The notes: generated from the letters alone by a model not told the origin. Counted from the first letter of the stretch, positions 6,890-37,340 are shown. The stretch is 64,000 nt of DNA from Dehalococcoidales bacterium (GCA_034429935.1 DAOUFJ010000016.1:428-64427), one strand, 5' to 3'. Translations and numbers: made by a program.

Positions 6890-8152
6890 TTATCCCGCTT
6901 TTGCGACTGAGGGTTTCCTGTTATTGAACCTCTTGCTGCGGAAATCGTTTCCTATTGTTTGACGCGGGGGGCGAACGTTTCTCCCCCCCATTTTTTGCTG
7001 AGGACGGATTCTTTCATCTACCGGAGCGGGTACGGTATAATCGAATCCCTCCAGAGTCCTTCTTTCTATCGGTGACTTTAAAATCTTCTCGATTTCACGT
7101 ATCATGGCCGTATCCGAACCTGTTACCAGTGTCAGAGCGCTGCCATTGTTATTAATCCTTCCTGTTCTGCCGATGCGATGCGTATAGTCCTCTGAGCATT
7201 CGGGGATGTCATAATTAATAACGTGCGAGATGCTTAAAATATCTATGCCCCGGGAGGCGATATCTGTCGCTACCAATATCTTGATTGAACCTTTGCGCAG
7301 GCCATCGATTGCAGCCTGTCGCCTGAATTGAGATAGATTACCGTGTAAAGCCGCTGCTTTAAACCCGGCTGCTTTCAATTCCTTGGCTACCTTTTCGGCA
7401 CGGTGCTTGGTTCGGGTAAAGATAATTACCGATTCCATTTCTGTACGGTATAGTATTTCCAAAAGTAATGCCGTTTTAAGATGCTGTTTTACAGGATATA
7501 AAGCATGAGATACTGTTTCCGCTGGAACTGTATTTCCGATTTGTATATATATCGGCTCTGTAAGAATATCCTTTATCAGGCTGCGTATTTCTTTGGGCAT
7601 GGTGGCCGAAAAAAGCAGTGTCTGGTGTTTCTGCATTATACATTCGAGAATGCTTTTTATATTCGGCAGAAATCCCATATCCAGCATCCTGTCTGCTTCA
7701 TCGATTACCAGTATCTCGATATGGGTCAAATCGACGGTGCTCCTCCATATGTGGTCTAACAGCCGTCCCGGGCAGGCTACAACAATCTCGGCTTTATTCC
7801 GCAGATTGATGATTTGTTGATTGATGTTAACGCCGCCATAAACGGAGACACTTCTCAATCCGGTTCTTTTTCCCAGTTTATTTATGGCTTCGCATGTTTG
7901 CTCGGCCAGTTCGCGGGTGGGTGACATTATAAGTGCCCTGACCTGTCCCCTTTTCCCTTTCATTAATTGTTGTAGTATGGGCAAGACGAAGGCAGCGGTT
8001 TTTCCCGTCCCTGTCTGTGCCAACCCGACAATATCGCGTCCCTGCATTATAGGCGGAATCGCTTTTAACTGGATTGGTGTAGGCTCGACATATCCGAGCG
8101 CCTGGACGCCTTCCATAATGCTGGGATGTAAATTAAACTCATTAAAATTCAT
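6890..8152 (-). CDS. DEAD-box ATP-dependent RNA helicase
   Basis: 420 aa; Q-motif, AQTGTGKT, VIDEADRM, SAT, HRIGRTGR motifs, basic C-terminal tail. Confidence 0.95.
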   Translation of the reverse strand: MNFNEFNLHPSIMEGVQALGYVEPTPIQLKAIPPIMQGRDIVGLAQTGTGKTAAFVLPILQQLMKGKRGQVRALIMSPTRELAEQTCEAINKLGKRTGLRSVSVYGGVNINQQIINLRNKAEIVVACPGRLLDHIWRSTVDLTHIEILVIDEADRMLDMGFLPNIKSILECIMQKHQTLLFSATMPKEIRSLIKDILTEPIYIQIGNTVPAETVSHALYPVKQHLKTALLLEILYRTEMESVIIFTRTKHRAEKVAKELKAAGFKAAALHGNLSQFRRQAAIDGLRKGSIKILVATDIASRGIDILSISHVINYDIPECSEDYTHRIGRTGRINNNGSALTLVTGSDTAMIREIEKILKSPIERRTLEGFDYTVPAPVDERIRPQQKMGGRNVRPPRQTIGNDFRSKRFNNRKPSVAKAG

Positions 8153-8213
8153 TGAAACTCCTTAGTTAAATACCAGTTGCATATAATTTGAGATTGGATT
8201 GCAACTATAAGAC

Positions 8214-8250
8214 AAACTCCTCCCCTGTTAATAAAAATAGGGAGGAGTTT
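8214..8250 (-). terminator. Strong hairpin downstream of the RRM gene (putative terminator / helicase 5' UTR boundary)
   Basis: 11-bp perfect stem AAACTCCTCCC/GGGAGGAGTTT with 15-nt loop; the U-tract is weak. Confidence 0.45.
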
Positions 8251-8313
8251 ACATTAATATTCGTTATCGACACGTTTCCTTGTTACTCAAGCAGGATGAA
8301 GCAGGGATGTGAA

Positions 8314-8679
8314 TTAGAATCTTCTACCGCCCCTGTTTCCGCCGCTACGATTTCCACTGCCATATCCGCCGCCACGGTTGCCGCCATATCCGCCGCTTCT
8401 GTTGCTACCGTATCCTCCTCCGCTGCTCCTATTGTCTGTGCGGGGACGGGCTTCGTTGACTACGATAGTTCTGTCATTTATCATTTGACCGTTTAATCCG
8501 GCAATAGCAGCTTCAGCCTGTGCTTTGGATGACATTTCTACAAAGGCGAAGCCCTTGGGACGGCCGCTATCTCTGTCCGTAATGATACTTACTGTATCCA
8601 CTTCTCCGTATTCTGAAAATTTCTGTTTCAAATCTTCCTCTGTTATATCGTACGATAAATTTCCGACATATAATTTCAT
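8314..8679 (-). CDS. RRM-type RNA-binding protein with Gly/Arg-rich tail
   Basis: 121 aa; RNP2 LYVGNL, RNP1 KGFAFVEM, C-terminal GGYG/RGG repeats. Confidence 0.9.
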   Translation of the reverse strand: MKLYVGNLSYDITEEDLKQKFSEYGEVDTVSIITDRDSGRPKGFAFVEMSSKAQAEAAIAGLNGQMINDRTIVVNEARPRTDNRSSGGGYGSNRSGGYGGNRGGGYGSGNRSGGNRGGRRF

Positions 8680-8718
8680 AATTATTAACTCCTTATTTTT
8701 TGTTTATTATCTAAATAT

Positions 8719-9048
8719 TTATCTGGTGTCTCTTATTTTGTTATAACAAATGCCGCAATATACAGGTTTATCCTGACTGGGTTTAAATGGCACTTGCGTT
8801 TCCTTTTTACATTCAATGCATGTTGCTGAAAACATTTGCCGCCTGGTTTTTTCATCATGGTTGTTATAATTTCTGGTATTGCTGCCAAGCCGGCTGGTTT
8901 GCCTTGCTTTCCTATCCTGCCGGCATGAAATACAACGCCTGGGCGAATTAGTATAACCCATTGACTGAAATTGCTCCTGTTCGAAAGCGGTAAAAGTAAA
9001 CTCTTTCCCGCAATCGTGACATCGGAGTATCTTGTCTTCGAAAGTCAT
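8719..9048 (-). CDS. Double zinc-ribbon protein (CxxC x4)
   Basis: CHDCG..CISC and CIECK..CGIC pairs. AGGAGGA lies 6 nt before the ATG at 9048, so the track start at 9066 falls inside the RBS. Confidence 0.7.
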   Translation of the reverse strand: MTFEDKILRCHDCGKEFTFTAFEQEQFQSMGYTNSPRRCISCRQDRKARQTSRLGSNTRNYNNHDEKTRRQMFSATCIECKKETQVPFKPSQDKPVYCGICYNKIRDTR

Positions 9049-9318
9049 TGCATGTCCTCCTCTCATAATATATTAGTCGGAGTTCGGGCCATACAATGCT
9101 TATTACAAATCTGAGGGATTTCGAGAAGATTTATTAACCTAAACTTAAACTATTAACATAATTATAACTTAATTTGGCTTACTCTACAAATATAGTTTAT
9201 ATATATGAGATTTTTGCCTGATTATGCGGCTTCGCTAATTCGCCTATTGCAATAATGTTTAACCTCTACTAATATATAACTAGTTGTTCCGCTATCCATT
9301 ATCCATATGGAGGTCACG

Positions 9319-9489
9319 ATGAGCGTTGAAAATACGGGCGAGATATACAGATGCACCGTTTGCGGAAATGAAGTAACTGTTGTTATCGCTGGTGGAGGCA
9401 CTTTGAGTTGTTGCGGGAAGGAGATGGAAAAAATCGCTGATATCAATGATGTTGAAATGTCCCGCAGACTACCGGATTCCGGAATGTAA
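9319..9489 (+). CDS. Desulforedoxin-like small FeS4 protein
   Basis: YRCTVCGNEV...LSCCGKEM four-Cys desulforedoxin motif; GGAGG 5 nt upstream of ATG 9319. Confidence 0.7.
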   Translation: MSVENTGEIYRCTVCGNEVTVVIAGGGTLSCCGKEMEKIADINDVEMSRRLPDSGM

Positions 9490-9551
9490 ATGTATAAAAA
9501 GACCATAAGCCTGTGAAACTTCTCATATTATTAAATTTCAGGAGGAATGAA

Positions 9552-9740
9552 ATGAACATGGGGAAATTGGACAGGATTATTCGTGGCATTATCGGCGTTG
9601 CGTTGATTCTGGTCGCCTTACTTGCTATGGATGGTGCATGGCAAATCGTATTGATAGTTTTAGGTGGAATATTGGTGGGAACGGCCCTCAGCGGTTTTTG
9701 TCCGCTATATGTTCCTTTCCATATTTCAACGAAGAAGTGA
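9552..9740 (+). CDS. Small two-TM membrane protein (YgaP-like/DUF2892-like)
   Basis: GKLDRIIRGIIGVALI...GFCPLY pattern; AGGAGG 6 nt upstream of ATG 9552. Confidence 0.55.
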   Translation: MNMGKLDRIIRGIIGVALILVALLAMDGAWQIVLIVLGGILVGTALSGFCPLYVPFHISTKK

Positions 9741-9829
9741 CCGCCGGGTAAAATTTTTAATAGCAGGTGCTTTATAATTAAAATTCTGGTCGATTGTTGA
9801 TATCAATGTATTTTGGGAGTACAGGGGTA

Positions 9830-9858
9830 TTGACAAAACTAGCCAGGATTTATAAAAT
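9830..9858 (+). promoter_or_regulatory. Near-consensus sigma70-type promoter for the 9918/10316 paralog pair
   Basis: TTGACA (9830-9835), 17-nt spacer, TAAAAT (9853-9858), followed by 5' UTR hairpin TTAGCAA/TTGCTAA. Confidence 0.6.
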
Positions 9859-9917
9859 ATGCTTTAGCAATCTAATGAATACATTGCTAATATATTAAAT
9901 CCAAAGGGGGGCAGTAC

Positions 9918-10274
9918 ATGGAGTCAATTGAAAAGCTTGGTGAAGTTCAGATGGAAATGACGAGCGACGTAAAAACATCAGAAGAATTAAAGGTTTTGTT
10001 AAGATGGGGGTGGGGGGCTGAAACAACTGGGAAACTTGTGTTTAAACCATCTGAGGAATTGAAGGTTGGCGATGGAATAAAAGTGACGGTGGAAAAGGTT
10101 GTCATCGTTCCTGACCCGGTAGAAGAGAAGACCGATGAGACGGCAAATGAAACCGAAGCTGCTGAAGAAACGGCTGTCGAAGCAGAATGTGTGTGTTGTG
10201 AGTCTGCAAAGATTCCCACGGATGCAGTAGCAGAAAACACAGCCGGTAATGTAGACGATACAAAAACGGCATAA
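9918..10274 (+). CDS. Hypothetical small acidic protein (paralog 1)
   Basis: 118 aa; N-terminal ~65 aa align with the next ORF (MT.D...E.L.VL.R..W.A....F.P.E.LK.GD...VTVEK); acidic tail with ECVCCES. Confidence 0.6.
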   Translation: MESIEKLGEVQMEMTSDVKTSEELKVLLRWGWGAETTGKLVFKPSEELKVGDGIKVTVEKVVIVPDPVEEKTDETANETEAAEETAVEAECVCCESAKIPTDAVAENTAGNVDDTKTA

Positions 10275-10315
10275 ATATTTAATTAATTTAGCTATATATC
10301 AGGAGGCGTTAAAAT

Positions 10316-10522
10316 ATGGAACCAGTAAAAATAGGGCAGGCTGAAGCAAACATGACTACCGATATCGGTATGGAAGAAGATTTAAGGGTATTGTTTAGAG
10401 TTAACTGGACGGCAAAATCACCGGAAGTTGCTTTCAACCCGGCGGAAAGTTTAAAGCGCGGTGATAAAGTAAGGGTTACCGTAGAAAAAATATCCGAAGC
10501 ACCCAAGACTGAACAGAAATAA
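10316..10522 (+). CDS. Hypothetical small protein (paralog 2)
   Basis: 68 aa; AGGAGG RBS; paralogous to 9918..10274. Confidence 0.6.
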   Translation: MEPVKIGQAEANMTTDIGMEEDLRVLFRVNWTAKSPEVAFNPAESLKRGDKVRVTVEKISEAPKTEQK

Positions 10523-10593
10523 AAATCGGAATTCGTTGCCTGTCTTATAACGTAACGAGACGGATTTTAAATGGTAAAAATTAAATAGGATGT

Positions 10594-10620
10594 AAAACCC
10601 CGGAAAAGCTCTGGGGTTTT
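10594..10620 (+). terminator. Rho-independent terminator
   Basis: AAAACCCCGG-loop-CTGGGGTTTT followed by a T-rich stretch. Confidence 0.65.
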
Positions 10621-10645
10621 ATAGTTTAATATATCGGGGGAAAAT

Positions 10646-11140
10646 ATGCCTTCAGTCGATGTGGTGAGTAAGGTTGATATGCAGGCGCTGGATAATGCTG
10701 TGAATAATACGCTGCGTGAAGTAGCCAGCCGCTACGATTTTAAAAATGTGAATACCGAGATAACTCTGAATAAGAAGGATAAGCTGATTCATCTTGCAAC
10801 CGGCGATGAATTGAAGATGAAAACGGTTATCGAAATGTTGAAGGGGCGGTGTGTTCGTTCTGATTTGGATCCCAAATGCCTGTCCCCGAAGAAAATAGAG
10901 CCGACTTCGCACGGTACGGTGAAAATGGATATACAGGTCAACGAGGGGATTCCGTCTGAAACATTGAAGAAAATGGTCAAGCTCATCAAAAGTTTCAATA
11001 CCAAAGTGCAGCCGGCCATTCAGGATGACCAGCTTAGAATCAGCGGAAAGAAGATAGACGACCTGCAGGAAATCATGCAATTGCTGAAAGACCAGGGCTA
11101 TGACATGCCCCTTCAGTTCGTCAACATGAAAAGAGATTAA
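10646..11140 (+). CDS. yajQ: YajQ family nucleotide-binding protein (UPF0234)
   Basis: 164 aa; MPSVDVVSKVDMQALDNAVNN N-terminus typical of YajQ. Confidence 0.85.
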   Translation: MPSVDVVSKVDMQALDNAVNNTLREVASRYDFKNVNTEITLNKKDKLIHLATGDELKMKTVIEMLKGRCVRSDLDPKCLSPKKIEPTSHGTVKMDIQVNEGIPSETLKKMVKLIKSFNTKVQPAIQDDQLRISGKKIDDLQEIMQLLKDQGYDMPLQFVNMKRD

Positions 11141-11407
11141 AGGGCATCATTTAAAGTAAGATTTCAGCTCTTCTCTGGTATAAGTAGTTATACGTTCAAG
11201 TTTGCAATCCTGATGGATGAGGACGAATGTCTTTTGAGGGGCATATTTTTCCCTTTATGTTGCGTTTAAAAGAAAAAATATATATTATAATATAGTACTA
11301 TAGTATATATGGGTTTTCCCGATTGCTGATTGATTAAATCGCCGGTAAATTCAAGGTTCGAAATAAGGGAATATTTAACCTTTGAAAAAAATATGAGGGA
11401 GGATTAT

Positions 11408-11926
11408 ATGCCATTTTGTAGAAACTGTGGGAATGAATTAATAGGGAATCCTGATATATGCGTGAACTGTGGGGTTATTCTTAATCCAAATCAAAAGCCG
11501 CCTTATCATGCACAACAATATCAATCACCACAGTATCCTAATCCACAATATCAAAATCCCCAGTATACCAATCCTCAATATCCGCCGCCCCAGTATCAGA
11601 ATCCTCAGTATCCAAATCAGCAATACCCTAATCCACAATATCCGCCAAACCAGTATAATATGGCCGGTTATGCTTCCGATAAGTCCAAGATAACGGTTGC
11701 GCTTCTGGCCTTCTTCCTGGGAACGTTGGGCGTTCACAGGTTTTATACCGGAAAGGTAGGTACCGGTATCGCTATGGCGGTATTGACGGTCGTCGGCTGG
11801 ATAACCAGTATCTTTATCTTCGGTTATATCCTGGTCTCGGCTGTCGGTTTATGGGCTTTAATCGATTTCATTATGGCGTTGATGGGCAAGTTTACTGATA
11901 AATACGGCAGACCGATAGTTAATTAG
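11408..11926 (+). CDS. Zinc-ribbon / (P/N)QY-repeat / TM2-domain membrane protein
   Basis: CRNCGN..CVNCG ribbon, about 12 tandem xPQY tetrapeptides, C-terminal TM2 motif LLAFFLGTLGVHRFYTG; GGAGG before ATG 11408. Confidence 0.75.
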   Translation: MPFCRNCGNELIGNPDICVNCGVILNPNQKPPYHAQQYQSPQYPNPQYQNPQYTNPQYPPPQYQNPQYPNQQYPNPQYPPNQYNMAGYASDKSKITVALLAFFLGTLGVHRFYTGKVGTGIAMAVLTVVGWITSIFIFGYILVSAVGLWALIDFIMALMGKFTDKYGRPIVN

Positions 11927-11993
11927 AGTGCCCGGTTTTAATCCTTTCTGTTAGCGGCAATCTATTTGCTGCGGTGAAATATAATCAAAAGAA

Positions 11994-12027
11994 GTGCCTG
12001 GTGTAAAAAGCCGGGCGCTTTTCGTTT
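11994..12027 (+). terminator. Rho-independent terminator
   Basis: GUGCCUGG/CCGGGCGC stem (two G-U pairs) followed by TTTTCGTTT. Confidence 0.55.
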
Positions 12028-12113
12028 ACAGGATAGTAGTTATAGTGGTATATTGACTATATCGGCTATAATAGCTATGATAATAGCAAACATAGCCAAT
12101 ATAGGGGGTGTAG

Positions 12114-12353
12114 ATGCAGAACGCAACTAGCAGAACAAGATACTTTCTGGATATAGAACCTGAATTGAGAAACCGTTTAAAAGCTATGGCTGCCCTGAAA
12201 GGGAAGTCGATGAAGGAATGGCTTACTGAAGCTATAATTGCCAAGATGGAAGATGAAATAGACTCTACTGAAGGGCTGGCGGCATTGGCTGATGTTGAAG
12301 GAACTGTTTCGCTGGAAAATTATCTCGAATCACGCAAAACGAAAAATTCGTAA
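12114..12353 (+). CDS. Type II antitoxin (ribbon-helix-helix-like)
   Basis: 79 aa; stop is 9 nt before the RelE/ParE toxin; N-terminal RYFLDIEPELRNRLKAMAALKGKSMKEW resembles RHH/CopG antitoxins. Confidence 0.6.
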   Translation: MQNATSRTRYFLDIEPELRNRLKAMAALKGKSMKEWLTEAIIAKMEDEIDSTEGLAALADVEGTVSLENYLESRKTKNS

Positions 12354-12362
12354 ATACCGATA

Positions 12363-12620
12363 ATGTACAGGATAGAATTAAGACGGAAAGCCCGGCATTC
12401 TCTTGATAAGCTGCCCAAAAGTGATTTCACGGCAATTATAGAGGCAGTTAAAAACCTGGCGGAGTTACCGAGGCCGAAGGGTGTAGAGAAGATAAAGAGC
12501 GCAGGATTGTGGAGAATCCGGTATGGAGATTACCGCATAGTTTACAGTATCGATGACGATAATAAGACTGTCATTATCCTTCGTATAGGACACCGCAGGG
12601 AAATCTACAGGTCACTTTGA
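12363..12620 (+). CDS. RelE/ParE family type II toxin
   Basis: 85 aa; ...LWRIRYGDYRIVYSIDDDNKTVIILRIGHRREIY typical RelE/StbE C-terminal core. Confidence 0.8.
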   Translation: MYRIELRRKARHSLDKLPKSDFTAIIEAVKNLAELPRPKGVEKIKSAGLWRIRYGDYRIVYSIDDDNKTVIILRIGHRREIYRSL

Positions 12621-12673
12621 TTTAGAATTAGATATTCTATCCGATATTTGTTTATCTTTAGGCATTTGCTAAA

Positions 12674-12710
12674 AAAGCGTTCGATTCAACACCGGACGCT
12701 TTCCGTTTTT
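12674..12710 (+). terminator. Rho-independent terminator after the TA pair
   Basis: AAAGCGTTCG/CGGACGCTTT stem (9/10) followed by CCGTTTTT. Confidence 0.55.
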
Positions 12711-12890
12711 AAATATTTTAGGTATTTATATTGATATTATATACTTGCAGAAAATACAATTATATAAATGACATATATATAGTTGTTAAAATCGTGAATG
12801 ATATGGTCGAATAGAATTGCTACTAAAATTACTCTCCAAATGTATATCCATATATTGAATTAGACGAAAAGGGAAAGGAAGTTTGAAAAA

Positions 12891-13502
12891 GTGACAATAG
12901 CAAATATATTAGAAAGTATTTCAATTATTGTTGCTGCAATTGCAGTTGTAGTGGGAATTTATAAATGGCGTACTGAGTATTTAGGTAAAAGAAAAATAGA
13001 ACTTGTCGAAGAAGTACTAGCTTTATTTTATGAAATAAGAGATATAATTAAATATATAAGAAGTCCCTTTTCATATGCTAGCGAAGGTAGCACTCGAAAA
13101 GCATCCGATAATGAAACTCCTGCGCAAAAAATAGTCTATGACAGAGTATATGTTTTGTTTGAAAGATATGATAAACATAAAGATAAATTTAGCAAATTAC
13201 AGTCTTTAAAATATCGATACTGGGCATATTTTGGTGAGAAATCAGTTGAGCCATTTAATGAATTAAATAGTGTCATGAATGAATTGTTTGCTTCAGCGAA
13301 TATATTATCTTATTATTGGCTTGATCGTGAAAATAGCTTTCATATAGATACAAATAAAGAAAAATTGGAAGAAATTAATAATAATATAAGAAAGAATGAA
13401 GCAATATTTTGGGATAGGTATAAAGAAGATACTATAAATCCAAAAGTTGAAGCAATTATTACTAAGATAGAAAATCAAGCTAGTAAAATTATTAATCCTT
13501 AA
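12891..13502 (+). CDS. Hypothetical protein, N-terminal TM helix, strongly AT-rich orphan
   Basis: 203 aa; GTG start; no motif recognised; codon usage very different from neighbours. Confidence 0.5.
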   Translation: MTIANILESISIIVAAIAVVVGIYKWRTEYLGKRKIELVEEVLALFYEIRDIIKYIRSPFSYASEGSTRKASDNETPAQKIVYDRVYVLFERYDKHKDKFSKLQSLKYRYWAYFGEKSVEPFNELNSVMNELFASANILSYYWLDRENSFHIDTNKEKLEEINNNIRKNEAIFWDRYKEDTINPKVEAIITKIENQASKIINP

Positions 13503-13547
13503 CTAATACTAATAATAGATTTAGGGGAAATTATGAAGGTTATTAAT

Positions 13548-13611
13548 AAATGACAGCAGCAAAATATTGCTGTATAAGTATAGAACGGCAAGAACAGGAT
13601 GGCACAAGCCT
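13548..13611 (+). pseudogene. 5' fragment of a serine recombinase gene (decayed second copy)
   Basis: 64-nt ungapped alignment with 17621-17684 (52/64), including the AAATGA start context and GGCAAGAACAGGATGG.ACAAGCCT; reads MTAAKYCCISIERQEQDGTSLYL-stop. Confidence 0.7.
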
Positions 13612-13619
13612 TTATTTAT

Positions 13620-13925
13620 AAGTCTTCCGTTCTTTGACCCTTTCCCGATGAAATCGGGACTCGGGGCGAACGGAACAAGGATAATCGTTAACCACGTAGG
13701 GACGGGCATTGCCCGTCCGCCAAATACGGAAGCATGAATGCGAACGACCATTGGTCGTCCCTGCGTTTTTTATCTGTCATGCTGAATTCGTGAAGGACGA
13801 ATGAAGCATCTGGGGAGGTGGTTAATAAGGCAGTCCCACCTGTTGCCGTAGGTACCTTTGTGCTGTTTCTCCCCGCTCCCCGGATTCTTCAGTCACCCCT
13901 TGTGACTTCCAGAATGACAGTATAA
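13620..13925. repeat. Mosaic intergenic repeat cluster 2
   Basis: Modules CCCGATGAAATCGGGA (also 32098); GCGAACGACCATTGGTCGTCCCTGCG (also ~57330); TGTCATGCTGAATTCGTGAAGGACGAATGAAGCATCTGGGG; and the inverted ...CCGGATTCTTCAGTCAC..GTGACTTCCAGAATGACAG (also 57438). Confidence 0.8.
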
Positions 13926-13953
13926 TCCGAAAGCAGCGGACTTAAAAGTGATA

Positions 13954-13983
13954 ATAAAAAAGGGGAGCTTTTTACACTCCCCT
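13954..13983 (-). terminator. Native dnaN terminator, now separated from dnaN by the inserted element
   Basis: On the minus strand: GGGGAG-9 nt-CTCCCC followed by TTTTTTATT, 34 nt downstream of the displaced dnaN stop codon. Confidence 0.7.
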
Positions 13984-14016
13984 CTATGTTTTCCGGTTAA
14001 TAATTTATCTAATATC

Positions 14017-14043
14017 TAATCCCACTGTACGAACATGGGGATG
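14017..14043 (-). other. attL: displaced native 3' end of dnaN (..IPMFVQWD-TAG)
   Basis: 14020-14043 vs 19109-19132: 19/24 identical, all differences at third codon positions of the dnaN frame. Confidence 0.7.
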
Positions 14044-14224
14044 TTTGCCTTTCCATGCTTACATTAAAATATAGGTTAAAAAGAGTTAATTCTTAAAGAA
14101 GTAAACTCATTTATTAAAAACTATAAACTGGGGTTGAACCGTTGAATTCTTGCGTGTGAATTAGGATTGAATCAGCGAGCTAAAGGCTATTTGAAGCTAA
14201 AAAAAGACTCTTACTTCCTCCTGT

Positions 14225-14623
14225 TTAATAAAATGAGTAATCGGCCATTGCTATTACATAGGCACCGGTACTTGTGGCCTGCTTTACCACCACACCGTCT
14301 ACTATTATCTTAACAGTTACGGAACCACTATCTCCGAGGTTTTGCGCTGATATTGAGGAGAACCAGTAATCATAAGTGGAATAATTATAAGTTCTTGGTA
14401 AATATACGCTGTCATGCTGCTCTATACTACCGGAAGGGGTGTACATTGTTACAAATACTTTTGAGGCCGTGCCTGATATTTCATAAGAAAGGGAGTGATG
14501 ATTTGTTACGAAATCCTCATCGCCTGTGATGCTACAAGCTGCTGGAGCAAATAGCGCAGCACCCACACCAACCCACACCACCATAAAGAAAGCAAATAAA
14601 ATCGTCCCTGTTTTTGTGCTCAT
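14225..14623 (-). CDS. Small exported/membrane-anchored beta-rich protein (element cargo)
   Basis: N-terminal hydrophobic signal/anchor ending ..FAPAAC; AAGGAGG 4 nt before ATG 14623. Confidence 0.6.
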   Translation of the reverse strand: MSTKTGTILFAFFMVVWVGVGAALFAPAACSITGDEDFVTNHHSLSYEISGTASKVFVTMYTPSGSIEQHDSVYLPRTYNYSTYDYWFSSISAQNLGDSGSVTVKIIVDGVVVKQATSTGAYVIAMADYSFY

Positions 14624-14835
14624 CACACCTCCTTCGATTATAAATCGATTTCGTGTACAGCTTTGATAATACTACCTATTATTTCGATATTATCAGCGGT
14701 CTCGATTTTGTCTATCAAAATTAATTTTATTATACTATCGTTTAGGACAAAGTCAATACTTATATGATAAATATTGTGATAAAATATGCCAAATCATGAA
14801 AAGCAGGCTTCCGATAAAAAGTTTAAACTCTTGGT

Positions 14836-15651
14836 TTGGTGAATATGCCTAAGAAAAAACAATCTCGTAAAGTTTATGGCGCAAAAACTCATAATTGGCG
14901 TCCAGAAATGAGACCTTTCATTGTGGCTGCTCTATGTGTTTATAATGCGTTAGATTTTTCTACAAAAGCAAAGGAAGTATATAACCAGATACTAGAAGCA
15001 TGGGGTAAACCAGGTTGTATATCGTTATTAAAAGGTCATATAGTGATGCCAGTATCAGAGTTTAAAGCTTGGGAAGAAGCTGTTACTACTGGCAATAGTT
15101 ATGAGCCAAAGGATATAAGATTTAAAGCTTCTCATGATAACCTTGTTTATAACGAAGATTATATAAATCTTGTATTATTGATAGCTGAGTTTATAAGAGT
15201 CGGATTTAATCATAAAAAGGATTTAAAGGGTTACATTGAAAAGGTAACCATAGAAAAATCTGAATATCTCCCTCTCGCTGTGCAAGTAATATCAGCAGAA
15301 GAATACATTGAAAGGCATCCTGATTTGAATGTTGAAAAAGAAATAAAGCTCGGTAATAAAGTTCTTGACCCATCTCCTTTTAATGGTGTTAGCCAAGAAA
15401 GAACTCATCGTTTACATATAAAAATGCTTAAAAAATATGGTTATAGCCTCAATCATGATAAAAAGCTTAGTGATTTAGCTTGGTACTGGTATCAATGCAG
15501 AGTCGTATATTCAGGGATAGAAGAATTTTGTAATAAACATTTTAAAAATACAGGTATTAAGTTAGACCCTGCCAATATCACAAAAGAGATATTATTAGCC
15601 GATATAGCAACAGGATATCCAAGAAAGAATCTGGATAACTCAATAAAATAA
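14836..15651 (+). CDS. Hypothetical protein (element cargo)
   Basis: 271-aa ORF; no recognisable motif; the start may instead be ATG 14845. Confidence 0.5.
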   Translation: MVNMPKKKQSRKVYGAKTHNWRPEMRPFIVAALCVYNALDFSTKAKEVYNQILEAWGKPGCISLLKGHIVMPVSEFKAWEEAVTTGNSYEPKDIRFKASHDNLVYNEDYINLVLLIAEFIRVGFNHKKDLKGYIEKVTIEKSEYLPLAVQVISAEEYIERHPDLNVEKEIKLGNKVLDPSPFNGVSQERTHRLHIKMLKKYGYSLNHDKKLSDLAWYWYQCRVVYSGIEEFCNKHFKNTGIKLDPANITKEILLADIATGYPRKNLDNSIK

Positions 15652-15670
15652 TAAATAATCAGTCGAAAAC

Positions 15671-15706
15671 AAAAAGCCACTCATTCCCGGGTGGCTTTTT
15701 TGTTTT
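15671..15706 (+). terminator. Rho-independent terminator
   Basis: AAAAAGCCAC-10 nt-GTGGCTTTTT followed by TGTTTT. Confidence 0.7.
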
Positions 15707-15756
15707 GTACAAAAAACATACAGTTAAAAGTCTGAATTCGATGGTTTAATAGAATT

Positions 15757-15972
15757 ATGGCAAGGATTCAGAAAAAAACACTGCAAGAAATAAAAGTAAC
15801 CTTCACTCTTGAAGAACGGCCGCTGACTTTTGCACAAAAGGAAGCTGGAAAGCGTTTGTTTTCAAGTTTAATAGAAAGAGCACAAGCTCAATTAAAAGAA
15901 GATATTGCCATAGCAGAAAAAGCAGAAAGGTCGGCGCAGGTGGATCGGCGGGAGCCGCCACCTGCTTCATAA
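15757..15972 (+). CDS. Hypothetical small helical protein (element)
   Basis: 71-aa ORF; charged, coiled-coil-like; no motif. Confidence 0.4.
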   Translation: MARIQKKTLQEIKVTFTLEERPLTFAQKEAGKRLFSSLIERAQAQLKEDIAIAEKAERSAQVDRREPPPAS

Positions 15973-16084
15973 TAGGATAAATAAGAGCTGAGCGGACATC
16001 GGGAGCGGTAGCCGTGAGCGGATATACGAGGGGAGCTGGGGGAAGGGTTTATTTCTTCCCTCGGTATCCTCAAAACAAACTCAA

Positions 16085-16189
16085 GGGACTTCTCGACATC
16101 GTGGGACTTCTCGGACTAAAGCCGAAGGACTTAACGAAAAGTCCAGATTAAAAAAGAAAAGGAATCCCCCCTCACTAACTAACAGGGGG
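16085..16189 (+). promoter_or_regulatory. Candidate origin (dso/oriT): two iterons plus two hairpins upstream of rep
   Basis: GGGACTTCTCG(A/G)AC at 16085-16097 and 16103-16116; hairpin GGACTT-AACGAA-AAGTCC (16127-16144); hairpin CCCCCCT-11 nt-AGGGGGG (~16165-16189). Confidence 0.5.
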
Positions 16190-16210
16190 GTTGCTAATAG
16201 TATTTTAGCT

Positions 16211-17419
16211 TTGAAGATTATGAAAGTTTTAAGTGCTGGTATTGATACATTAGTTGTTGGTTTCGCAATCGAAAGATACATGGAAAATGTAACCTTCGAT
16301 ATTTTAACTGAAGCTAAATTACGTGCATCTGAACAATATTTTGACAGTAACGGGTGTGCTGTTAATTGGTATGGGGTTGATTTTATAGTCAAGCCTCGTG
16401 GTGCTAGGGGTTATGAATGGGTATTAGAGAACGATGATATAACAATGTGTCTTAATCCCAAAGCTCTTAATGGTAGGGTTATGCCTGAAGTCTATATCAC
16501 ATTCTCAAGTAAATACCTCTGGGCTGTTGGTTATAAAGCTGCTTTTTATGAAGTGTATGAATGGCTATTAAAGTGGGCAATTTGTAACGATAATACAGTT
16601 TCAAGGTGTGACCTCTGTATGGACATAGAAATGCCTATGCCAATAATTGAGATAGAAAAAGAGATGGTTACGAAGGCAAGGCATAAGGCTGAGTTCCCTT
16701 ATTCTACTCCTGACGTAGTTACCCATTATAGCGGTAGACGTATTACTACCTATCAAGTTGGTAAAGGTAACCTGCTTGCCAGAATATATGATAAGACTAA
16801 TGAAATACTGAAAAGCCAGAAAGAATGGTTTAAGGAAATATGGGAAAAGCAAGGTTGGGATAAAAAAGAAAGAGTGGTTAGAATTGAATTTCAATGCAGG
16901 CGTGAATTTCTTAAGGAAAAGTGTACTCAGAGCTTTGCAGATTTGGAATACACTTTAGGAAGTATATGGGATTATTGTACTCATGAATGGCTTCGTGTAT
17001 GTGATGCAGGCTCTAAGAGCAATCAATCCAGATGGAAGGAAAAGGATTACTGGAAGATGATACAAGATAGCTCAAAAATGTTCGGGGAAGTATATAACAT
17101 TCCTAGAACAAAGATTAAGAATGTTCAGCGTGAACATTTGATGAAGCAGTTAAACGGTATACTTCTTTCGATATGTGCGTTATCCTCTGATGAATTCGGT
17201 ATCGATGGTGCAAAAGTTCTAACAATAGCCGATATTAGACAATATCTTCACTCCTCTGATTTCAAGCGTGAATTAAAGAAAAGGATTGCAAGGTTTGGTA
17301 ATATTCAAAAACCTAATAATAATTATCTTATTGAAGAAGTTATGAAGCTTGGCGGTGTAATTGAAGAAATCAATGAAAAAGCCTTGGGAACGGAAGCGGA
17401 CAAGCACTTCTTAAACTAG
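16211..17419 (+). CDS. Rep_trans-family rolling-circle replication initiator / MOB_T-type relaxase
   Basis: 402 aa; VSRCDLCMDIE, GRRITTYQVGKGNLLARIYDKTNE and VVRIEFQCRRE blocks resemble the Rep_trans (pT181 RepC/D, Tn916 Orf20-like) pattern; assigned from memory, no search was run. Confidence 0.6.
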   Translation: MKIMKVLSAGIDTLVVGFAIERYMENVTFDILTEAKLRASEQYFDSNGCAVNWYGVDFIVKPRGARGYEWVLENDDITMCLNPKALNGRVMPEVYITFSSKYLWAVGYKAAFYEVYEWLLKWAICNDNTVSRCDLCMDIEMPMPIIEIEKEMVTKARHKAEFPYSTPDVVTHYSGRRITTYQVGKGNLLARIYDKTNEILKSQKEWFKEIWEKQGWDKKERVVRIEFQCRREFLKEKCTQSFADLEYTLGSIWDYCTHEWLRVCDAGSKSNQSRWKEKDYWKMIQDSSKMFGEVYNIPRTKIKNVQREHLMKQLNGILLSICALSSDEFGIDGAKVLTIADIRQYLHSSDFKRELKKRIARFGNIQKPNNNYLIEEVMKLGGVIEEINEKALGTEADKHFLN

Positions 17420-17497
17420 CGTCCGCTGAAGTGAACAAGAGAAAAATAATATCAAAAAGTATTGCTATTATAATATCCAGAATAATATAATAGAGAT

Positions 17498-17626
17498 ATG
17501 ATAAGAATACATAAATGTTTAAGATGTGAATGGGAATGGGCAAGTCGAATGGAAGAACTTCCAAAATACTGTCCGAAATGTAAATCTCCGTACTGGAATA
17601 AACCAAAATGGAAGGGCATAAAATGA
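17498..17626 (+). CDS. 42-aa zinc-ribbon micro-protein overlapping the recombinase start (ATGA)
   Basis: Own translation MIRIHKCLRCEWEWASRMEELPKYCPKCKSPYWNKPKWKGIK; CxxC-17-CxxC; the stop TGA shares the A of ATG 17623. Confidence 0.5.
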   Translation: MIRIHKCLRCEWEWASRMEELPKYCPKCKSPYWNKPKWKGIK

Positions 17627-19260
17627 AAGCAGCAATTTATTATCGTGTTAGTACTGAAGGGCAAGAACAGGATGGTACAAGCCTGCAAACACAGCTTGAA
17701 GCCTGTCTTAAATATTGCCAAGTTAGAAATTATGAAGTTGTTAAACAATTCAAGGAAGCGTATTCTGGCTTATCTTTAGAACGTCCACAGTTAGATGAAC
17801 TTAGAACATTGATTCGTGAAAGTATAATCGATGTTGTAGTAGTTTACAGTCTTGATAGATTATCTCGTGACCCAGTTCATGGTGTTATATTGATGCAAGA
17901 GATGGAAAAGCATGGTGTTTATCTGGAAGCTGCCACTGAGACAGTTGATAATTCGGAAGTTGGGAAGCTGATATTTTACATAAAAGGTTATGCTGCTAAA
18001 TTAGATGCTGAAAGAAGACGTGATGCTACTGGTCGAGGAAAACAGGCTTTACTTAAAGCTGGGAAGATGCCTCAAGGTACTGGTATAGGTGTATATGGTT
18101 ATGAATGGATAAAAGAATATAAGAAAAGAATTCCAATTGAGAGAGAAGCCAAGATAGTTAAACGGATGTTCGAAATGGTTGCAAGGGGTGATAGCTGTTT
18201 TAAGATTGCTCGAATATTTAATCAGGAAAGCATACCTACTAAATCAGGAAAGAAATGGGAAGCTCGAACTGTAAGTCGAATCGTGAGAAATCCTGCTTAT
18301 ATTGGTATAACATATTTTGGTAAGACTGCTGGGAAAGACAGGAAAGTAGTCCCTCAAAACAGTTGGATTATACTTCCAGATGTAACTCCAGCGATTATTG
18401 ATACGGAATTATTTAATATGGTGCAAGATGTTTTAGCTAAATCGAAAGAACTTCATCCTGGCAGAGCCATGCATGAATATCCTTTAGTTGGTTTAGCTAA
18501 ATGCGCTAAATGCGGAAGTCCATTGATAGGGTCTTTTCAAAAAGGGAAATATCGGTATTACAGATGCAGGGGAACCACTCCGACATCCTCGAAAGATAAG
18601 ATTTGCAATGCAGGTTATATAAATGCGGATATGCTTGAAAATGTCGTTTGGGAAAATGTTAAGAGTGTGCTCAGTAACCCCGAAATATTATTATATGAAA
18701 TGGGAAAACAGATAGAATCGGAAAGCGATAAAGCATCATATGCCATGATTGACAGTGAAATTAAAGAGCTAAACAGGAAATTGAAAAAATATCCTGCACA
18801 GGAAAGGCGTATTATGCAAGCGTTTAAGTTTGGATTCACTGAAGATGTAGTACTAGATGAAATGAACCAGACCAAAAAAGAAAAAGAAGCTGACAAGAAA
18901 AAACTTGATGAATTGATTAAGACTAAAGAAAGCATAATGAACTTGCAGATTTCTAAAGATAATATGAAAGAACTCTGCGCTAAAATAGTTCCTGATTTAG
19001 AGAACTGCGATAATTATACTAAAAAAGATGCCTACACACATCTTGATTTACATATCAAAGCGACACGTGAAGGCATCGATATTAAAGGTCATTTTGAAGC
19101 TATTTTCAGTCCCACTGGACAAACATTGGCATTACAACGTGAATGTAGTTGTCCACTCCCACCGGGCGGAAGACGCCAGGGCTGGAGGGGCTGGTTACTT
19201 CCAGAGCGACCTGAGATTCATGTAAAACATTCAGGATATCCGAAAGATACTTGCTGTTGA
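17623..19260 (+). CDS. Large serine recombinase (integrase); 3' end crosses attR and runs antisense into dnaN
   Basis: MKAAIYYRVSTEGQ catalytic N-terminus, resolvase domain, recombinase domain, zinc-ribbon CAKCGS...YYRC and coiled-coil region; the last ~43 codons are antisense dnaN sequence. Confidence 0.9.
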   Translation: MKAAIYYRVSTEGQEQDGTSLQTQLEACLKYCQVRNYEVVKQFKEAYSGLSLERPQLDELRTLIRESIIDVVVVYSLDRLSRDPVHGVILMQEMEKHGVYLEAATETVDNSEVGKLIFYIKGYAAKLDAERRRDATGRGKQALLKAGKMPQGTGIGVYGYEWIKEYKKRIPIEREAKIVKRMFEMVARGDSCFKIARIFNQESIPTKSGKKWEARTVSRIVRNPAYIGITYFGKTAGKDRKVVPQNSWIILPDVTPAIIDTELFNMVQDVLAKSKELHPGRAMHEYPLVGLAKCAKCGSPLIGSFQKGKYRYYRCRGTTPTSSKDKICNAGYINADMLENVVWENVKSVLSNPEILLYEMGKQIESESDKASYAMIDSEIKELNRKLKKYPAQERRIMQAFKFGFTEDVVLDEMNQTKKEKEADKKKLDELIKTKESIMNLQISKDNMKELCAKIVPDLENCDNYTKKDAYTHLDLHIKATREGIDIKGHFEAIFSPTGQTLALQRECSCPLPPGGRRQGWRGWLLPERPEIHVKHSGYPKDTCC

Positions 19261-20242
19261 AGGCGATTTTGGCTTCTTCGCCCTGAACCAGTGCATCGAT
19301 TTCACCAACATCGTCGCCGATTTCTTCCGAGCGTGCGGCAATAGTCAGCTTCCCCGGTGCTTCCTTGACGCCCGGGTTGATAACCAGCCTGATGATGTTG
19401 CTGCCGTCGCGGGCAAAGATACTTGCCGTCTTGGTGGCTCTTAAAAACTGCGCAATATCGACCACGGCGCGTGTGGTATAGCTCTGCGGAATAAGCTGGG
19501 AATACTGGGGGAATGCTCCCTGTACCAACTGGGAAACAAGCTCGATATCCTTGAGCTTGAACATTATCTGCCCTTTGCTCGTGTTCAACCTGATTTCAAC
19601 CGGCTCTTCCTGCTCCGCTACCATTCTGTTCAGCTCGGCAAGGGTTTTTGCCGGGATTATGGCGGTTGTTTTTTTTGCGACGGGTGTCGCCAGCGGCATA
19701 TTGTAAACTGCCAGCCTGAAACCATCGGCGGCTGCCAGTGTTAAGGTATTGCCTTCGAAATTGGCGTTGATGCCCGTCAGCACCGGTCTGGATTCATCGG
19801 CAGCTGCGGCAAAAACAACCTTTTCGATGCCTTTTTGCAGCGCTTCCGCTTCGACGCTGGTGATAATTCCGTCTTCGACGTTGGGTATCGGGGGGAAGTC
19901 CTTGGCATCCACTCCGCTGATTCTTGCCTCGAAACGCGCACATTTCAATTGCAATGTTCTCGTGCGCGGCGAAAGGCTGATATTGATTTTATCGCTGGGC
20001 AGCGATGCTACGAATTCATTCAGCAATTTGGCAGGAACGGTAATCGCTCCTTCGGCTTCGACTTTGGCGCCGAGCCAGTATGTAATCGCCATTTCAAGGT
20101 TGGTGGCCACCAGCTTCAAGCGCCCTTCGTCTGTCGCTAAAAGTACGTTGTTGGTTATGGGAAGGGTAGTCCTGGTAGCAGCGGCCCTGCCGACGTATAT
20201 CAATCCGCGGTTAAGGTTTTCCTGAAGACAGGATAATTTCAT
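19106..20242 (-). CDS. dnaN: DNA polymerase III beta sliding clamp
   Basis: 378 aa; three-domain clamp, typical MKLSCLQENL N-terminus and ..VVMPM.. C-terminus; the last 8 codons are supplied by the element side of attR. Confidence 0.95.
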   Translation of the reverse strand: MKLSCLQENLNRGLIYVGRAAATRTTLPITNNVLLATDEGRLKLVATNLEMAITYWLGAKVEAEGAITVPAKLLNEFVASLPSDKINISLSPRTRTLQLKCARFEARISGVDAKDFPPIPNVEDGIITSVEAEALQKGIEKVVFAAAADESRPVLTGINANFEGNTLTLAAADGFRLAVYNMPLATPVAKKTTAIIPAKTLAELNRMVAEQEEPVEIRLNTSKGQIMFKLKDIELVSQLVQGAFPQYSQLIPQSYTTRAVVDIAQFLRATKTASIFARDGSNIIRLVINPGVKEAPGKLTIAARSEEIGDDVGEIDALVQGEEAKIAFNSKYLSDILNVLHESQVALEVTSPSSPGVFRPVGVDNYIHVVMPMFVQWD

Positions 20243-32726: not shown

Positions 32727-33116
32727 ATATTTTTTATTTATTTACTCCTCTATATACACCAGTATACTCCTTTTTCCGTTTTCAAATATTTATGTTGATT
32801 TATTGATTAAGCACAAGAAGGCGGAAAGAAGAATACTTGTTTAATTTATGGATGGAGATTTACAATACTTGAGCAATAATAGCGGACACCTGCTATTGTG
32901 ATAGCCGGAGAGACAATTCCCGTACATATCGATAAGAACGTATTTAGTGAACAAGAAGATTGCAGGGATGTTTGGATTTTAGAAATGAGAGATTGGAACA
33001 ATGGAGAATGGACAAGATGAAAATATAAATATCTTGATAACGCATACAGATGAAGGGGAAAAGACAAAAATATCTTCCCCCTAATCCCGTAAAACCGGCT
33101 TGGTGTATATATTAAT

Positions 33117-33488
33117 TCAGGCTATCCGTTTGATATCCATTTCTCTTTTTATGAGAATAGCACCGATTAAATAAACCACCGTCAGAATAAAAAGACTCCA
33201 GATTAATCTTGGTTCGCTATCGCCACCGATAAGACAAATTACCTCGATATATATTGCAAATGCTGAAATAGCGATAGCAATCAGGATTCCTGTTTTAGGA
33301 CGCCATATCGTTATCAGTGTAATTATAACCAGCGGTAAACCAAATATTAAACCGGACAGAAGCCGCAGCCCTGAATCTTCCGGATTAATAGCAAGTTCAG
33401 CGTACCAATACGCTCCGAATATTGAGATTAAAGAACTGGCAATCATTATAATCAGCCCTATTATCCTCATGATATTATATGATTTCAT
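33117..33488 (-). CDS. Four-TM membrane protein (AT-rich island)
   Basis: 123 aa; four hydrophobic helices; last gene of the minus-strand cluster. Confidence 0.6.
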   Translation of the reverse strand: MKSYNIMRIIGLIIMIASSLISIFGAYWYAELAINPEDSGLRLLSGLIFGLPLVIITLITIWRPKTGILIAIAISAFAIYIEVICLIGGDSEPRLIWSLFILTVVYLIGAILIKREMDIKRIA

Positions 33489-33572
33489 CTATGTTACCTT
33501 TTAATATTATCTAATCTTGTAATAACTCTCTCAACATCATGACTGGACTAATAAGCTAGAAAAATTAATTTA

Positions 33573-34595
33573 TTACTTATTAACCCTGGAGTATCTATTT
33601 TTATTCATCAGCAAAATAGTAATAATAATACCAATCAATATAAAGCCACTTAGTATCAAACTAAATATTGAAGAGTCCCCTTGACCCATTTTGGTAACCG
33701 GGATATCAAATGTTGCTACAGGACTATTAGACCCACCATGTGCAGAGGCTCTAATATATATAATAGAATTACCTTCTTCTTCTGCACAAAAAGTAAAGGT
33801 TCCTTTAACATTTTCTTCTTTTTCAATTGTATCAAAACTATATATCTTATTATCCAATAACATTAAATTATCATATGTTATTGCACTTACAACAACATTT
33901 TTTGCTGGCAATATTCCTTGATTTGTTAGCGAAAAGCTTAATATTATCGAATCTCCAACATGTATATTTTTTGATAAACATTCAGCTTGTAATAATAAGT
34001 GCGGTGGAGAAATATTGGTAAACTCTATCCCGGATTTTTTTGTAATTATTACTTCGTCTACTTTTATATCTCCAAAAGCTTCCGTTTGAAAAGTAAGTAA
34101 ATTTTTACCACCATGAATTCCATTTGTTTGTATGTAATTAGTAAAATATCCAGCTACTTTCAATTCATCAGAAGAATACTCTAAACATTCGTTGATTAGA
34201 TCAACTGTATTATATTCAACAATTAACTCACCATATTCATTAAGTTTTGTTGTTACTTCAATTTGAGCTGAACTAAAACCATTTGAAAGAGCACTCACTA
34301 AAAACACTCCTTCTCCAGATTCATCTGATATAACAACTTCATAATCAATATGTATTAAATACCAATCGTCTTTTCCTTGTCTTGCATTATCCATCAACAC
34401 ATAAAAAATGTCTTGTTTTTCGAAATCACTAGGCAGCTTAAAAATAATATCTTCATATCCCAACATTTCCATAGTATATAAGCCATATGAGTTTATATCC
34501 ACCATATCTTCTTGCGCATCGATAGGATTTAAAGGGGAATAAAACAATACAAATATAAAAACACACAATATAAAAACTCTCATATTTAAAACCAT
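33573..34595 (-). CDS. Cell-surface protein: signal peptide, beta domains (CARDB-like segment), C-terminal TM anchor
   Basis: 340 aa; N-terminal hydrophobic leader, HVGDSIILSFSLTNQGILPAKNVVVSA CARDB-like strand pattern, C-terminal IFSLILSGFILIGIIITILL anchor. Confidence 0.6.
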   Translation of the reverse strand: MVLNMRVFILCVFIFVLFYSPLNPIDAQEDMVDINSYGLYTMEMLGYEDIIFKLPSDFEKQDIFYVLMDNARQGKDDWYLIHIDYEVVISDESGEGVFLVSALSNGFSSAQIEVTTKLNEYGELIVEYNTVDLINECLEYSSDELKVAGYFTNYIQTNGIHGGKNLLTFQTEAFGDIKVDEVIITKKSGIEFTNISPPHLLLQAECLSKNIHVGDSIILSFSLTNQGILPAKNVVVSAITYDNLMLLDNKIYSFDTIEKEENVKGTFTFCAEEEGNSIIYIRASAHGGSNSPVATFDIPVTKMGQGDSSIFSLILSGFILIGIIITILLMNKNRYSRVNK

Positions 34596-34671
34596 AAATG
34601 GTTTCTCCCTTTAAACAGGCTACACGACAATTAATGTGTGTAGCCTGTTTAAACATTTTACAAAAATATAA

Positions 34672-35292: not shown

Positions 35293-35328
35293 TTTTATTA
35301 ATCTCCTAATTTTTCAAAATATAATTCA

Positions 35329-35829: not shown

Positions 35830-35870
35830 TTTTCACCTCCAGTAATATTAAGTATTTCGCTTTGTTTCAA

Positions 35871-37327: not shown

Positions 37328-37340
37328 TGTGAGATAACTA

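Follow-up and report, generated by a model that had tools for sequence, protein, structure and literature searches.

A probable integrative replicon inserted into the 3' end of the sliding clamp gene dnaN in a Dehalococcoidales bacterium

In a 64,000-nt stretch of DNA from a Dehalococcoidales bacterium (GCA_034429935.1 DAOUFJ010000016.1:428-64427; hereafter the window, with coordinates counted from its first letter), the last codons of dnaN, the gene of the sliding clamp, are present twice. We conclude that the segment between the two copies is very probably a small integrative replicon, not a phage, whose own large serine recombinase inserted it at the dnaN 3' end. The window was compared with loci (L-numbers) from Dehalococcoidales genomes and metagenome contigs; L091 and L092 stem from two JGI metagenomes. 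By comparison of sequences, the boundaries of the element, the position of the crossover, the presence of the same element in different hosts, a circular relative with its attachment site (attP), unoccupied sites, the distribution of the family and the families of the encoded proteins could be established. A mobile element in the dnaN tail had already been proposed in an initial annotation of the window; the observation was confirmed, and its interpretation is supported by the sequence comparisons described here.

The two copies of the dnaN end are located at 14019-14042 (left) and 19109-19132 (right) and match in 19 of 24 bases. Read on the minus strand, the left copy encodes IPMFVQWD-TAG and the right copy MPMFVQWD-TGA. 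All five mismatches are found at codon position 3 (chance 0.0013, given five mismatches in 24 positions), and the stop codons of the two copies differ too (TAG vs TGA). A degenerate pattern of the shared bases matched only these two sites in the window, with 0.01 matches expected by chance. The identity, both peptides and the restriction of the differences to third positions agree with the initial annotation, as does the location of the right copy; the left copy had been placed one base off, at 14020-14043. The features of the insertion site are as follows.

14040-19129, no strand: integrated element of 5,090 bp (in L089, L091 and L092, 99.9-100% identity inside, a patch in rep excepted, and 75-83% outside)
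14038-14039, no strand: crossover dinucleotide of the left junction, GG on the plus strand, i.e. CC of a Pro codon (identity breaks, attP dyad, L016 array)
19128-19129, no strand: crossover dinucleotide of the right junction (in L091 and L092 it lies between the end of the element-type identity and the host differences that start at 19139)
14040-14074, plus strand: P arm of attP, which in the excised circle would also encode the last 11 recombinase residues and the stop codon (GCLPFHAYIKI-TAG; conserved motif, frame from sequence)
19106-20242, minus strand: dnaN, sliding clamp of 378 aa, intact (all three clamp domains matched)
19106-19127, minus strand: element-supplied dnaN end (P' arm) with the Pro wobble base, codons MFVQWD and TGA (identical in L088, L089, L091 and L092; similar arm on L093)
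14016-14037, minus strand: displaced former dnaN 3' end (B' arm) with the Pro wobble base, codons MFVQWD and TAG (sequence reading; L089 shares the element and differs here)
13959-13985, minus strand: intrinsic terminator after the displaced dnaN end (terminator scan: 10-pair G+C-rich stem, 7-nt loop, T run)
13548-13612, plus strand: decayed remnant of a related serine recombinase gene, coding for part of the N-terminus and left as a scar by an older element (81% DNA identity to 17621-17684)

The limits of the element became visible in other copies. Between the window and L091/L092, positions 17420-19129 contain 2 differences in 1,710 nt, and dnaN (19130-20242) is only 83% identical, with the first difference at 19139. 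In L089 the element is 100% identical from 14040 on, apart from a patch in rep, and the left flank (14004-14039) is only 75% identical. These identity breaks therefore set the limits of the element at 14040-19129, and they bear out the earlier claim that an integrative element lies within the last dnaN codons. The near-identical element beside a divergent dnaN in L091/L092 and a different left flank in L089 can only be explained by recent horizontal movement. In L088 the element occupies the same place, with flanks identical to those of the window. The low G+C content of the interior, noted before, fails to delimit the left side of the element, as the syntenic host DNA at 8001-12763 is low in G+C, too.

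The same comparisons located the crossover. In dnaN orientation, the right junction reads ...GTTGTAATG-CC-AATGTTTGTCCAGTGGGACTGA and the left junction ...GGCAAACATC-CC-CATGTTCGTACAGTGGGATTAG. L089 has the left arm of the window followed by GATGTTTGTCCAATGGGACTAA after CC, and in the complete chromosome of L016 three junctions share an identical 45-nt P arm and diverge from the first base after CC. Immediately before CC, dnaN has G and the element arm has C. Because this base differs and the copies differ right after CC, the exchange is restricted to CC, positions 1 and 2 of the Pro codon in the clamp C-terminal MPM motif. Junctions of exactly this form are expected if a serine recombinase makes a staggered cut of 2 bp. 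The I/M difference at the inner edge of the repeat, although correctly observed before, does not belong to the exchanged tail, as ATC comes from the P arm of the element and ATG from dnaN. A P-arm motif, GTA(A/C)GCATG(G/A)AA.GGCA(A/G)ACATC, precedes secondary dnaN-end copies in 10 junctions or loci. Around CC the inner arms of attP mirror each other (GATGTTTG with AATGTTTG in the window, CATGTCTG with CATGTTTG in L093), with symmetry at 7 of 8 positions. The sequences of attP and of the chromosomal site (attB) are different, with a shared asymmetric 2-bp core CC and imperfect dyad arms, as in large serine recombinase systems. Insertion by homologous recombination through the repeat was considered and rejected, as the two copies are short and only imperfectly alike, and every independent junction has its break at this CC.

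Junction copies that share the P arm differ right after CC; therefore everything 3' of CC in the working dnaN (Pro wobble base, MFVQWD codons and TGA) is element DNA. The differences after CC in L089 and L016 thus uphold the earlier assignment of the left copy as the displaced end and of the right-copy codons as element-derived. The window dnaN is 72-94% identical to dnaN of 80 Dehalococcoidales genomes. The crossover codon corresponds to P363 of the E. coli clamp, which is located in the partner-binding cleft and whose exchange (P363S) abolishes viability (PMC4045847). The flank beyond the displaced end resembles the native flank of L001. A terminator had been described after this end; it is present, at 13985-13959 on the minus strand rather than at 13954-13983, and as RNA it folds with -17.3 kcal/mol (z = -2.5). 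No comparable hairpin was found by a folding check after the present dnaN stop codon.

A circular, apparently free relative of the element was found in L093, a 7,697-nt contig with a 123-nt terminal repeat, which yields a 7,574-bp circle with an intact rep ORF (open reading frame) across the join. L093 carries rep, an Mrr-like nuclease gene, a recombinase gene whose product is 64% identical to that of the window, and homologues of two element ORFs of 271 aa and 71 aa; it has no dnaN. Its attP reads ...CGCATGAAATGGCAGACATG-CC-CATGTTTGTTCAATGG-TGA and encodes (P)MFVQW-stop. As L093 carries this mimic without dnaN, the element arm therefore encodes (P)MFVQW-stop before integration, and the proposal of a protein-level mimic of the clamp tail in attP holds. 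Attachment sites of this kind were also seen in chromosomal arrays: L024 (position 7069) and L067 (position 6190) have attP-like junctions composed of P arm, CC and P' arm together with a C-terminal recombinase remnant. Such junctions would be the expected product of successive insertions into the current dnaN end.

The recombinase and a small ORF at its start occupy the right part of the element.

17608-19260, plus strand: large serine recombinase gene; the real protein extends to about 19129, and the frame then reads through antisense dnaN (PF00239, PF07508, PF13408)
17498-17626, plus strand: 42-aa zinc-ribbon ORF with two CxxC motifs, overlapping the recombinase start (ORF list)

The N-terminal catalytic domain of the recombinase (PF00239, Resolvase, E 1.5e-30, residues 8-153) contains the serine motif YYRVSTEGQ and is accompanied by PF07508 (Recombinase, E 9e-28) and PF13408 (Zn_ribbon_recom, E 1e-14). 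The protein matches SPbeta YokA over residues 51-441 and the phrog_95 integrase (E 1e-102), and its best NCBIfam match is CcrB (141.5 bits vs a cut-off of 900). More than 1000 homologues were found. The recombinase ORF crosses the right junction at 19128-19129. In the window its frame antisense to the dnaN tail reads ...SPTGQTL and runs on to 19260; in most hosts the integrated recombinase stops two codons past the crossover (...QT(S/W)A-stop). In the excised form, the recombinase would comprise 518 aa and end with GCLPFHAYIKI-stop within the P arm at 14040-14074. The wobble positions of dnaN are second codon positions of the recombinase on the opposite strand. Among elements the recombinase tail is variable (TTGQTW, TIAQTS, TTARTS) and the clamp tail always the same; in the overlapping stretch, selection on the clamp therefore prevails. 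The 42-aa ORF has a homologue (68% identical) at the same position in L050 only. One possibility is that this zinc-ribbon protein acts as a recombination directionality factor.

Based on these data, the following course of events is proposed. The recombinase of the window presumably pairs attP of the element (...GCATGGAAAGGCAAACATC-CC-AATGTTTGTCCAGTGGGACTGA...) with the chromosomal attB (...CACGTTGTAATG-CC-CATGTTCGTACAGTGGGATTAG...) and would catalyse strand exchange at the 2-bp core. With this core being the CC of the proline codon within the clamp C-terminal Met-Pro-Met, dnaN would be cut seven codons before its end. The P' arm would then supply (P)MFVQWD and a stop codon, leaving the clamp protein unchanged, and the former dnaN end would be shifted 5,090 bp away together with its terminator. 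Within attP several roles would overlap, namely the predicted recombinase binding site, the dnaN tail on one strand and the last recombinase codons on the other; attP carries these codons because it sits inside the 3' end of the recombinase gene. The window copy may still be able to excise. The excised circle is most likely copied by the Rep_trans-type rolling-circle initiator encoded on the element, and we infer both this mode of replication and a route between cells. Repeated insertion at the same site, followed by decay, would give rise to arrays of dnaN-end copies downstream of dnaN.

How the element came by its clamp tail is a separate matter. Rather than having been moulded by the recombinase as its site, the P' arm may be a real dnaN 3' end, captured by imprecise excision from an earlier host and kept by selection on the clamp while integrated; we give this origin, which is compatible with the insertion of a replicon as proposed here, a little less than an even chance. 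P' and B' are distinguished solely by synonymous changes and by changes in the stop codon. Variation among the P' arms of different elements is restricted to dnaN wobble positions, even though it alters the recombinase tail, and the likeness to native flanks extends 4 nt past the stop codon (TGA-AAAT in the P' arm of the window, L001 and L002). A parallel is phage 21, which is thought to carry a foreign icd end. However, over its inner 8 bp P' is the mirror image of the P arm, as for a recombinase half-site, so that the arm is also under selection for binding, and no imprecise excision product was seen.

The remaining interior of the element encodes a replication protein and three further ORFs.

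16211-17419, plus strand: predicted rolling-circle replication initiator of the Rep_trans fold, 402 aa (weak Pfam match, AlphaFold and Foldseek)
15757-15972, plus strand: conserved 71-aa ORF adjoining rep (ORF list; homologue in L093)
14836-15651, plus strand: protein of 271 aa, shared by members of the element family (L051, L034 and L093 have homologues; 24 database homologues)
14225-14626, minus strand: 133-aa predicted membrane protein, cargo (ORF list; weak Mycobact_memb match; present in L088 and L089)

Rep matched PF02486 weakly and below threshold (19.5 bits vs a cut-off of 29.6, E 8e-4). An AlphaFold model built on 35 homologues (pLDDT 83) matched rolling-circle initiators in Foldseek with probability 1.0 (4CIJ, E 8e-10; 4CWE, E 2e-7), and the motif R191-x-Y193-D194-K195 (RxYDK) is invariant in the 35 homologues. 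According to the model, Rep thus has a Rep_trans fold with a conserved catalytic tyrosine. A sequence search of the PDB with Rep gave no match and an exact-sequence look-up no record. The content described in the initial annotation (Rep_trans-type protein, 42-aa CxxC ORF and large serine recombinase) is in line with these family and fold matches and with the ORF list. The rep gene also contains the patch excluded above: between element copies that are otherwise 100% identical, about 115-140 substitutions are confined to 16145-16924, i.e. the region upstream of rep and its N-terminal half. At least three alleles of the patch occur (in the window, in L088, nearly the same in L089, and in L091), and codon changes are about equally synonymous (42) and non-synonymous (43). 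This suggests swapping of rep/origin alleles between coexisting elements, or an assembly bubble.

A relationship to phages was considered, too, i.e. that we are dealing with a prophage of small size or a phage satellite and not with a plasmid-like replicon. Rep homologues of Dehalococcoides mccartyi are also found in phage-like elements of ~10 kb, but within the 5.1 kb of the window element no capsid, packaging or lysis gene was recognised by family searches, no relatives were found in IMG/VR by recombinase protein or by the attP/attR DNA pattern, and the 271-aa protein has no fold match. A phage nature is therefore improbable. For the 271-aa protein no family match was obtained either, and its predicted all-helical model (pLDDT 72) had no fold match in the PDB. 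The ~10-kb elements (L084-L087; D. mccartyi CP019969.1 and metagenome contigs) are different from the one described here: their Rep homologue is 42% identical and accompanied by a tyrosine integrase, a LexA-like repressor, SSB and a 530-aa protein. In contig L086 of this group the gene order looks circularly permuted, and there is no terminal repeat.

Empty sites, which the initial annotation had suggested to look for in relatives, were found in L001-L003 and L005-L007. In these loci dnaN is 92-94% identical, a terminator follows directly 3' of the gene, and there is no recombinase gene. The dnaN 3' ends of the clade were surveyed, as had also been suggested, in those 71 Dehalococcoidales species whose sequence extends 200 nt or more beyond dnaN. 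In 13 of them dnaN is directly adjoined by a recombinase gene or a fragment of one, and extra same-strand dnaN-end copies occur in 21 (up to four extra in L016); insertions or scars of one or the other type are present in 29 of the 71. Most occupied sites contain only recombinase fragments or bare dnaN-end copies. The reverse approach, starting from the recombinase, covered its 120 closest homologues (63% identity or more); in 87 of them the C-terminus is the antisense-dnaN signature ...QT[SWL]A. Of these 87, 65 have a stop codon for which ...TC-ATG of dnaN is the only source, and another 21 read into P-arm-type tails. Four further loci (L094-L097) have a recombinase gene with P' arm followed by an unfamiliar left arm; as these contigs end ~60-80 nt past the junction, they were left unclassified. 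In L022 and L032 a spacer of ~45 nt separates the dnaN stop codon from a second, partial dnaN-end copy with terminator, apparently the minimal scar of a nearly fully deleted element.

The family is also present in a cultured strain. In D. mccartyi UCH007 (L081), a 504-aa recombinase gene overlaps dnaN by 26 nt, and the island contains rep and, between rep and the recombinase gene, parDE; the host neighbour genes are the same as in the window. At ~9 kb from this recombinase gene (AP014722.1, about 952968-970137), rdhA and rdhB-like genes of reductive dehalogenases are located, with no second dnaN-end copy between.

The left side of the window element bears traces of earlier events. The fragment at 13548-13612 gave a tblastn match of 21 codons (E 4e-4) with a degraded catalytic motif, and ~1.25 kb at 12763-14018, including a 203-aa ORF, has no counterpart in L002 and L003, which are syntenic relatives. 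Both features probably stem from older insertions at this site; from the decayed fragment and the unshared DNA it follows that older insertions would have passed through the dnaN-end site. The left copy, which had been called native, is thus a displaced earlier end that may itself have been left by an older element. A comparable internal-deletion remnant fused to the dnaN end was observed in L037. A ParD/ParE toxin-antitoxin pair lies in syntenic host DNA of the window at 12114-12620, ~1.4 kb from the displaced dnaN end.

Several observations weigh against a mobile replicon. The UCH007 island shows no further dnaN-end copy within 11 kb, so that part of the family may be immobile. Among the element genes no recombination directionality factor could be identified, no double-strand origin was identified in the element, and nothing in its gene content accounts for transfer between cells. 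The circular L093 could in principle derive from two identical tandem copies instead. A degenerate-pattern scan of metagenomes, designed for attB, attP, attL and attR, gave no attP or attB junction of the exact window element; it also missed the known L088 and L089 junctions and is uninformative either way. Its sole return was an unrelated high-G+C contig (L090; SMUY01004046.1, 1,274 nt) with an orphan GTCATGCCAATGTTCGTCCAGTGGGACTGA without upstream dnaN and a composition unlike Dehalococcoidales.

Together with the prevalence of fragments and bare dnaN-end copies at occupied sites and the identical flanks of L088, the UCH007 island and the lack of junction reads in the scan would also fit a fixed, vertically inherited remnant which is no longer mobile and whose repeat is the relic of an ancient event. 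However, recombinase and rep genes are intact, the element is 99.9-100% identical beside an 83% identical dnaN in L091/L092 and a different left flank in L089, and a circular relative exists, so that such a remnant is improbable. A crossover further 3', for instance in the 8-bp identical block CAGTGGGA, with a native working dnaN end and a left copy consisting mostly of element DNA, could be proposed from the window alone, where five identical repeat blocks are indistinguishable, but it is contradicted by L089 and the three L016 junctions, which part from a shared P arm at the first base after CC, and by the attP dyad axis on CC, and is very unlikely indeed.

The proposed insertion of a replicon by its own recombinase is of a known kind, resembling SCCmec at rlmH and the Dehalococcoides ssrA islands, and the elements form a large new family. 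In full-text literature searches no description of dnaN as an integration target, or of the large family that uses it, was found, only an intergenic pneumococcal prophage between dnaN and ychF. A tRNA/tmRNA scan of the window found no gene, so that the target is not a tRNA or tmRNA gene, and an Rfam scan of 8-21 kb gave nothing relevant.

The ssrA islands encode the serine recombinase DsiB, whose gene overlaps the att site, and form tandem arrays (McMurdie et al. 2011, PMC3146451). As in these islands (PMC3146451), which occur in the same class, a CcrB-like large serine recombinase gene with a junction-dependent stop codon is located at the island edge, the target is the regenerated 3' end of a single-copy essential gene, and a short direct repeat as well as downstream tandem arrays and remnants are found. 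The target differs, being ssrA with a 20-bp repeat there and the protein-coding dnaN here, so that the reading frame must be kept. The ssrA islands have a six-gene integration module including the small recombinase DsiA, whereas the present element has one serine recombinase, and family searches found no ParB, Mom or RecF-like genes within 14040-19129. In addition, those islands were reported without replication genes, in contrast to the 5-kb element with its Rep_trans initiator; DsiB was compared by description.

SCC (staphylococcal cassette chromosome) elements insert by CcrAB or CcrC at the 3' end of rlmH/orfX (PMC4723332). With 141 bits against a cut-off of 900, the recombinase of the present element is no orthologue of Ccr; the target is another gene, the hosts belong to different phyla, and a single recombinase and a replication gene are present here. 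SCC elements use large serine recombinases, leave the gene intact, have 15-bp direct repeats and form composite arrays. Likewise, the dnaN element uses a large serine recombinase, with CcrB as the best named match, to enter the last codons of a conserved protein-coding gene that is kept intact, and short direct repeats and arrays occur. Membership in the SCC or ssrA-island families was rejected on target, module content and Ccr score.

More distant parallels exist. Phage 21 and e14 bring a substitute 3' end with mainly silent differences to E. coli icd, by a tyrosine integrase and with a duplicated segment of ~165 bp. They share with the dnaN element the location inside the 3' part of an important protein-coding gene and the substitute end with mainly silent changes, and differ in being phage-derived, in the integrase and in the much longer duplication. 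The pT181-family Rep_trans plasmids have the Rep_trans fold, the conserved tyrosine motif and the small size of the replicon in common with it, although the Pfam score here is below the cut-off. pSAM2 is an integrative rolling-circle element and thus also a replicon that integrates site-specifically; its tyrosine integrase, tRNA target and transfer gene set it apart. In myxophage Mx8, attP is located inside intP, encoding a tyrosine integrase, and integration changes the integrase C-terminus strongly and affects its activity. The position of attP within the integrase gene is alike, but only ~11 residues change in the dnaN element.

A broader proposal, which as a whole we put forward tentatively and consider possible rather than probable, is that Dehalococcoidia have, in addition to ssrA, a second major hot spot of integration, undescribed to date, at the dnaN 3' end, served by a recombinase family of more than 1000 members. 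As part of the same proposal, the attB core would be the codon of the essential cleft proline of the clamp, and attP would have a triple role as recombinase site, clamp tail and, on the other strand, recombinase tail. The loss of the dnaN terminator, antisense reading into the recombinase gene and the changed recombinase C-terminus could form a built-in switch between integrated and free state, and islands of this type in cultured D. mccartyi could carry reductive dehalogenase genes. The landing site would be frozen, since it consists of the most constrained codons of an essential replication protein, which the host cannot mutate away and which are constant across the whole order. As P' arms vary only at dnaN wobble positions, the constraint on a host protein becomes visible on element-borne DNA. 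For serine-integrase engineering, the family is a source of numerous natural attP/attB pairs whose 2-bp core is defined. Genomic islands spread the dehalogenase genes used in bioremediation, and dnaN, occupied in UCH007, is a second Dehalococcoides island site to examine.

Further observations were made elsewhere in the window. A segment with a G+C content of 0.29 (61111-63086) encodes a 450-aa ATPase (AAA_15/AAA_21/DUF3696) and an overlapping 207-aa partner without family match, adjoined by a deaminase-family gene (63197-63832); the genes of 61111-63086 look like an anti-phage defence pair. A second island of low G+C content (0.32-0.35) is located at 33000-38000 and contains three ORFs without family match, a 123-aa ORF with a weak, sub-threshold DUF2070 match, and a histidine kinase (HisKA_3) together with a response regulator of LuxR type. 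At 11486-11665, a 15-nt repeat present in nine copies encodes a PQYxN repeat region inside a zinc-ribbon/TM2-domain protein (11330-11926).

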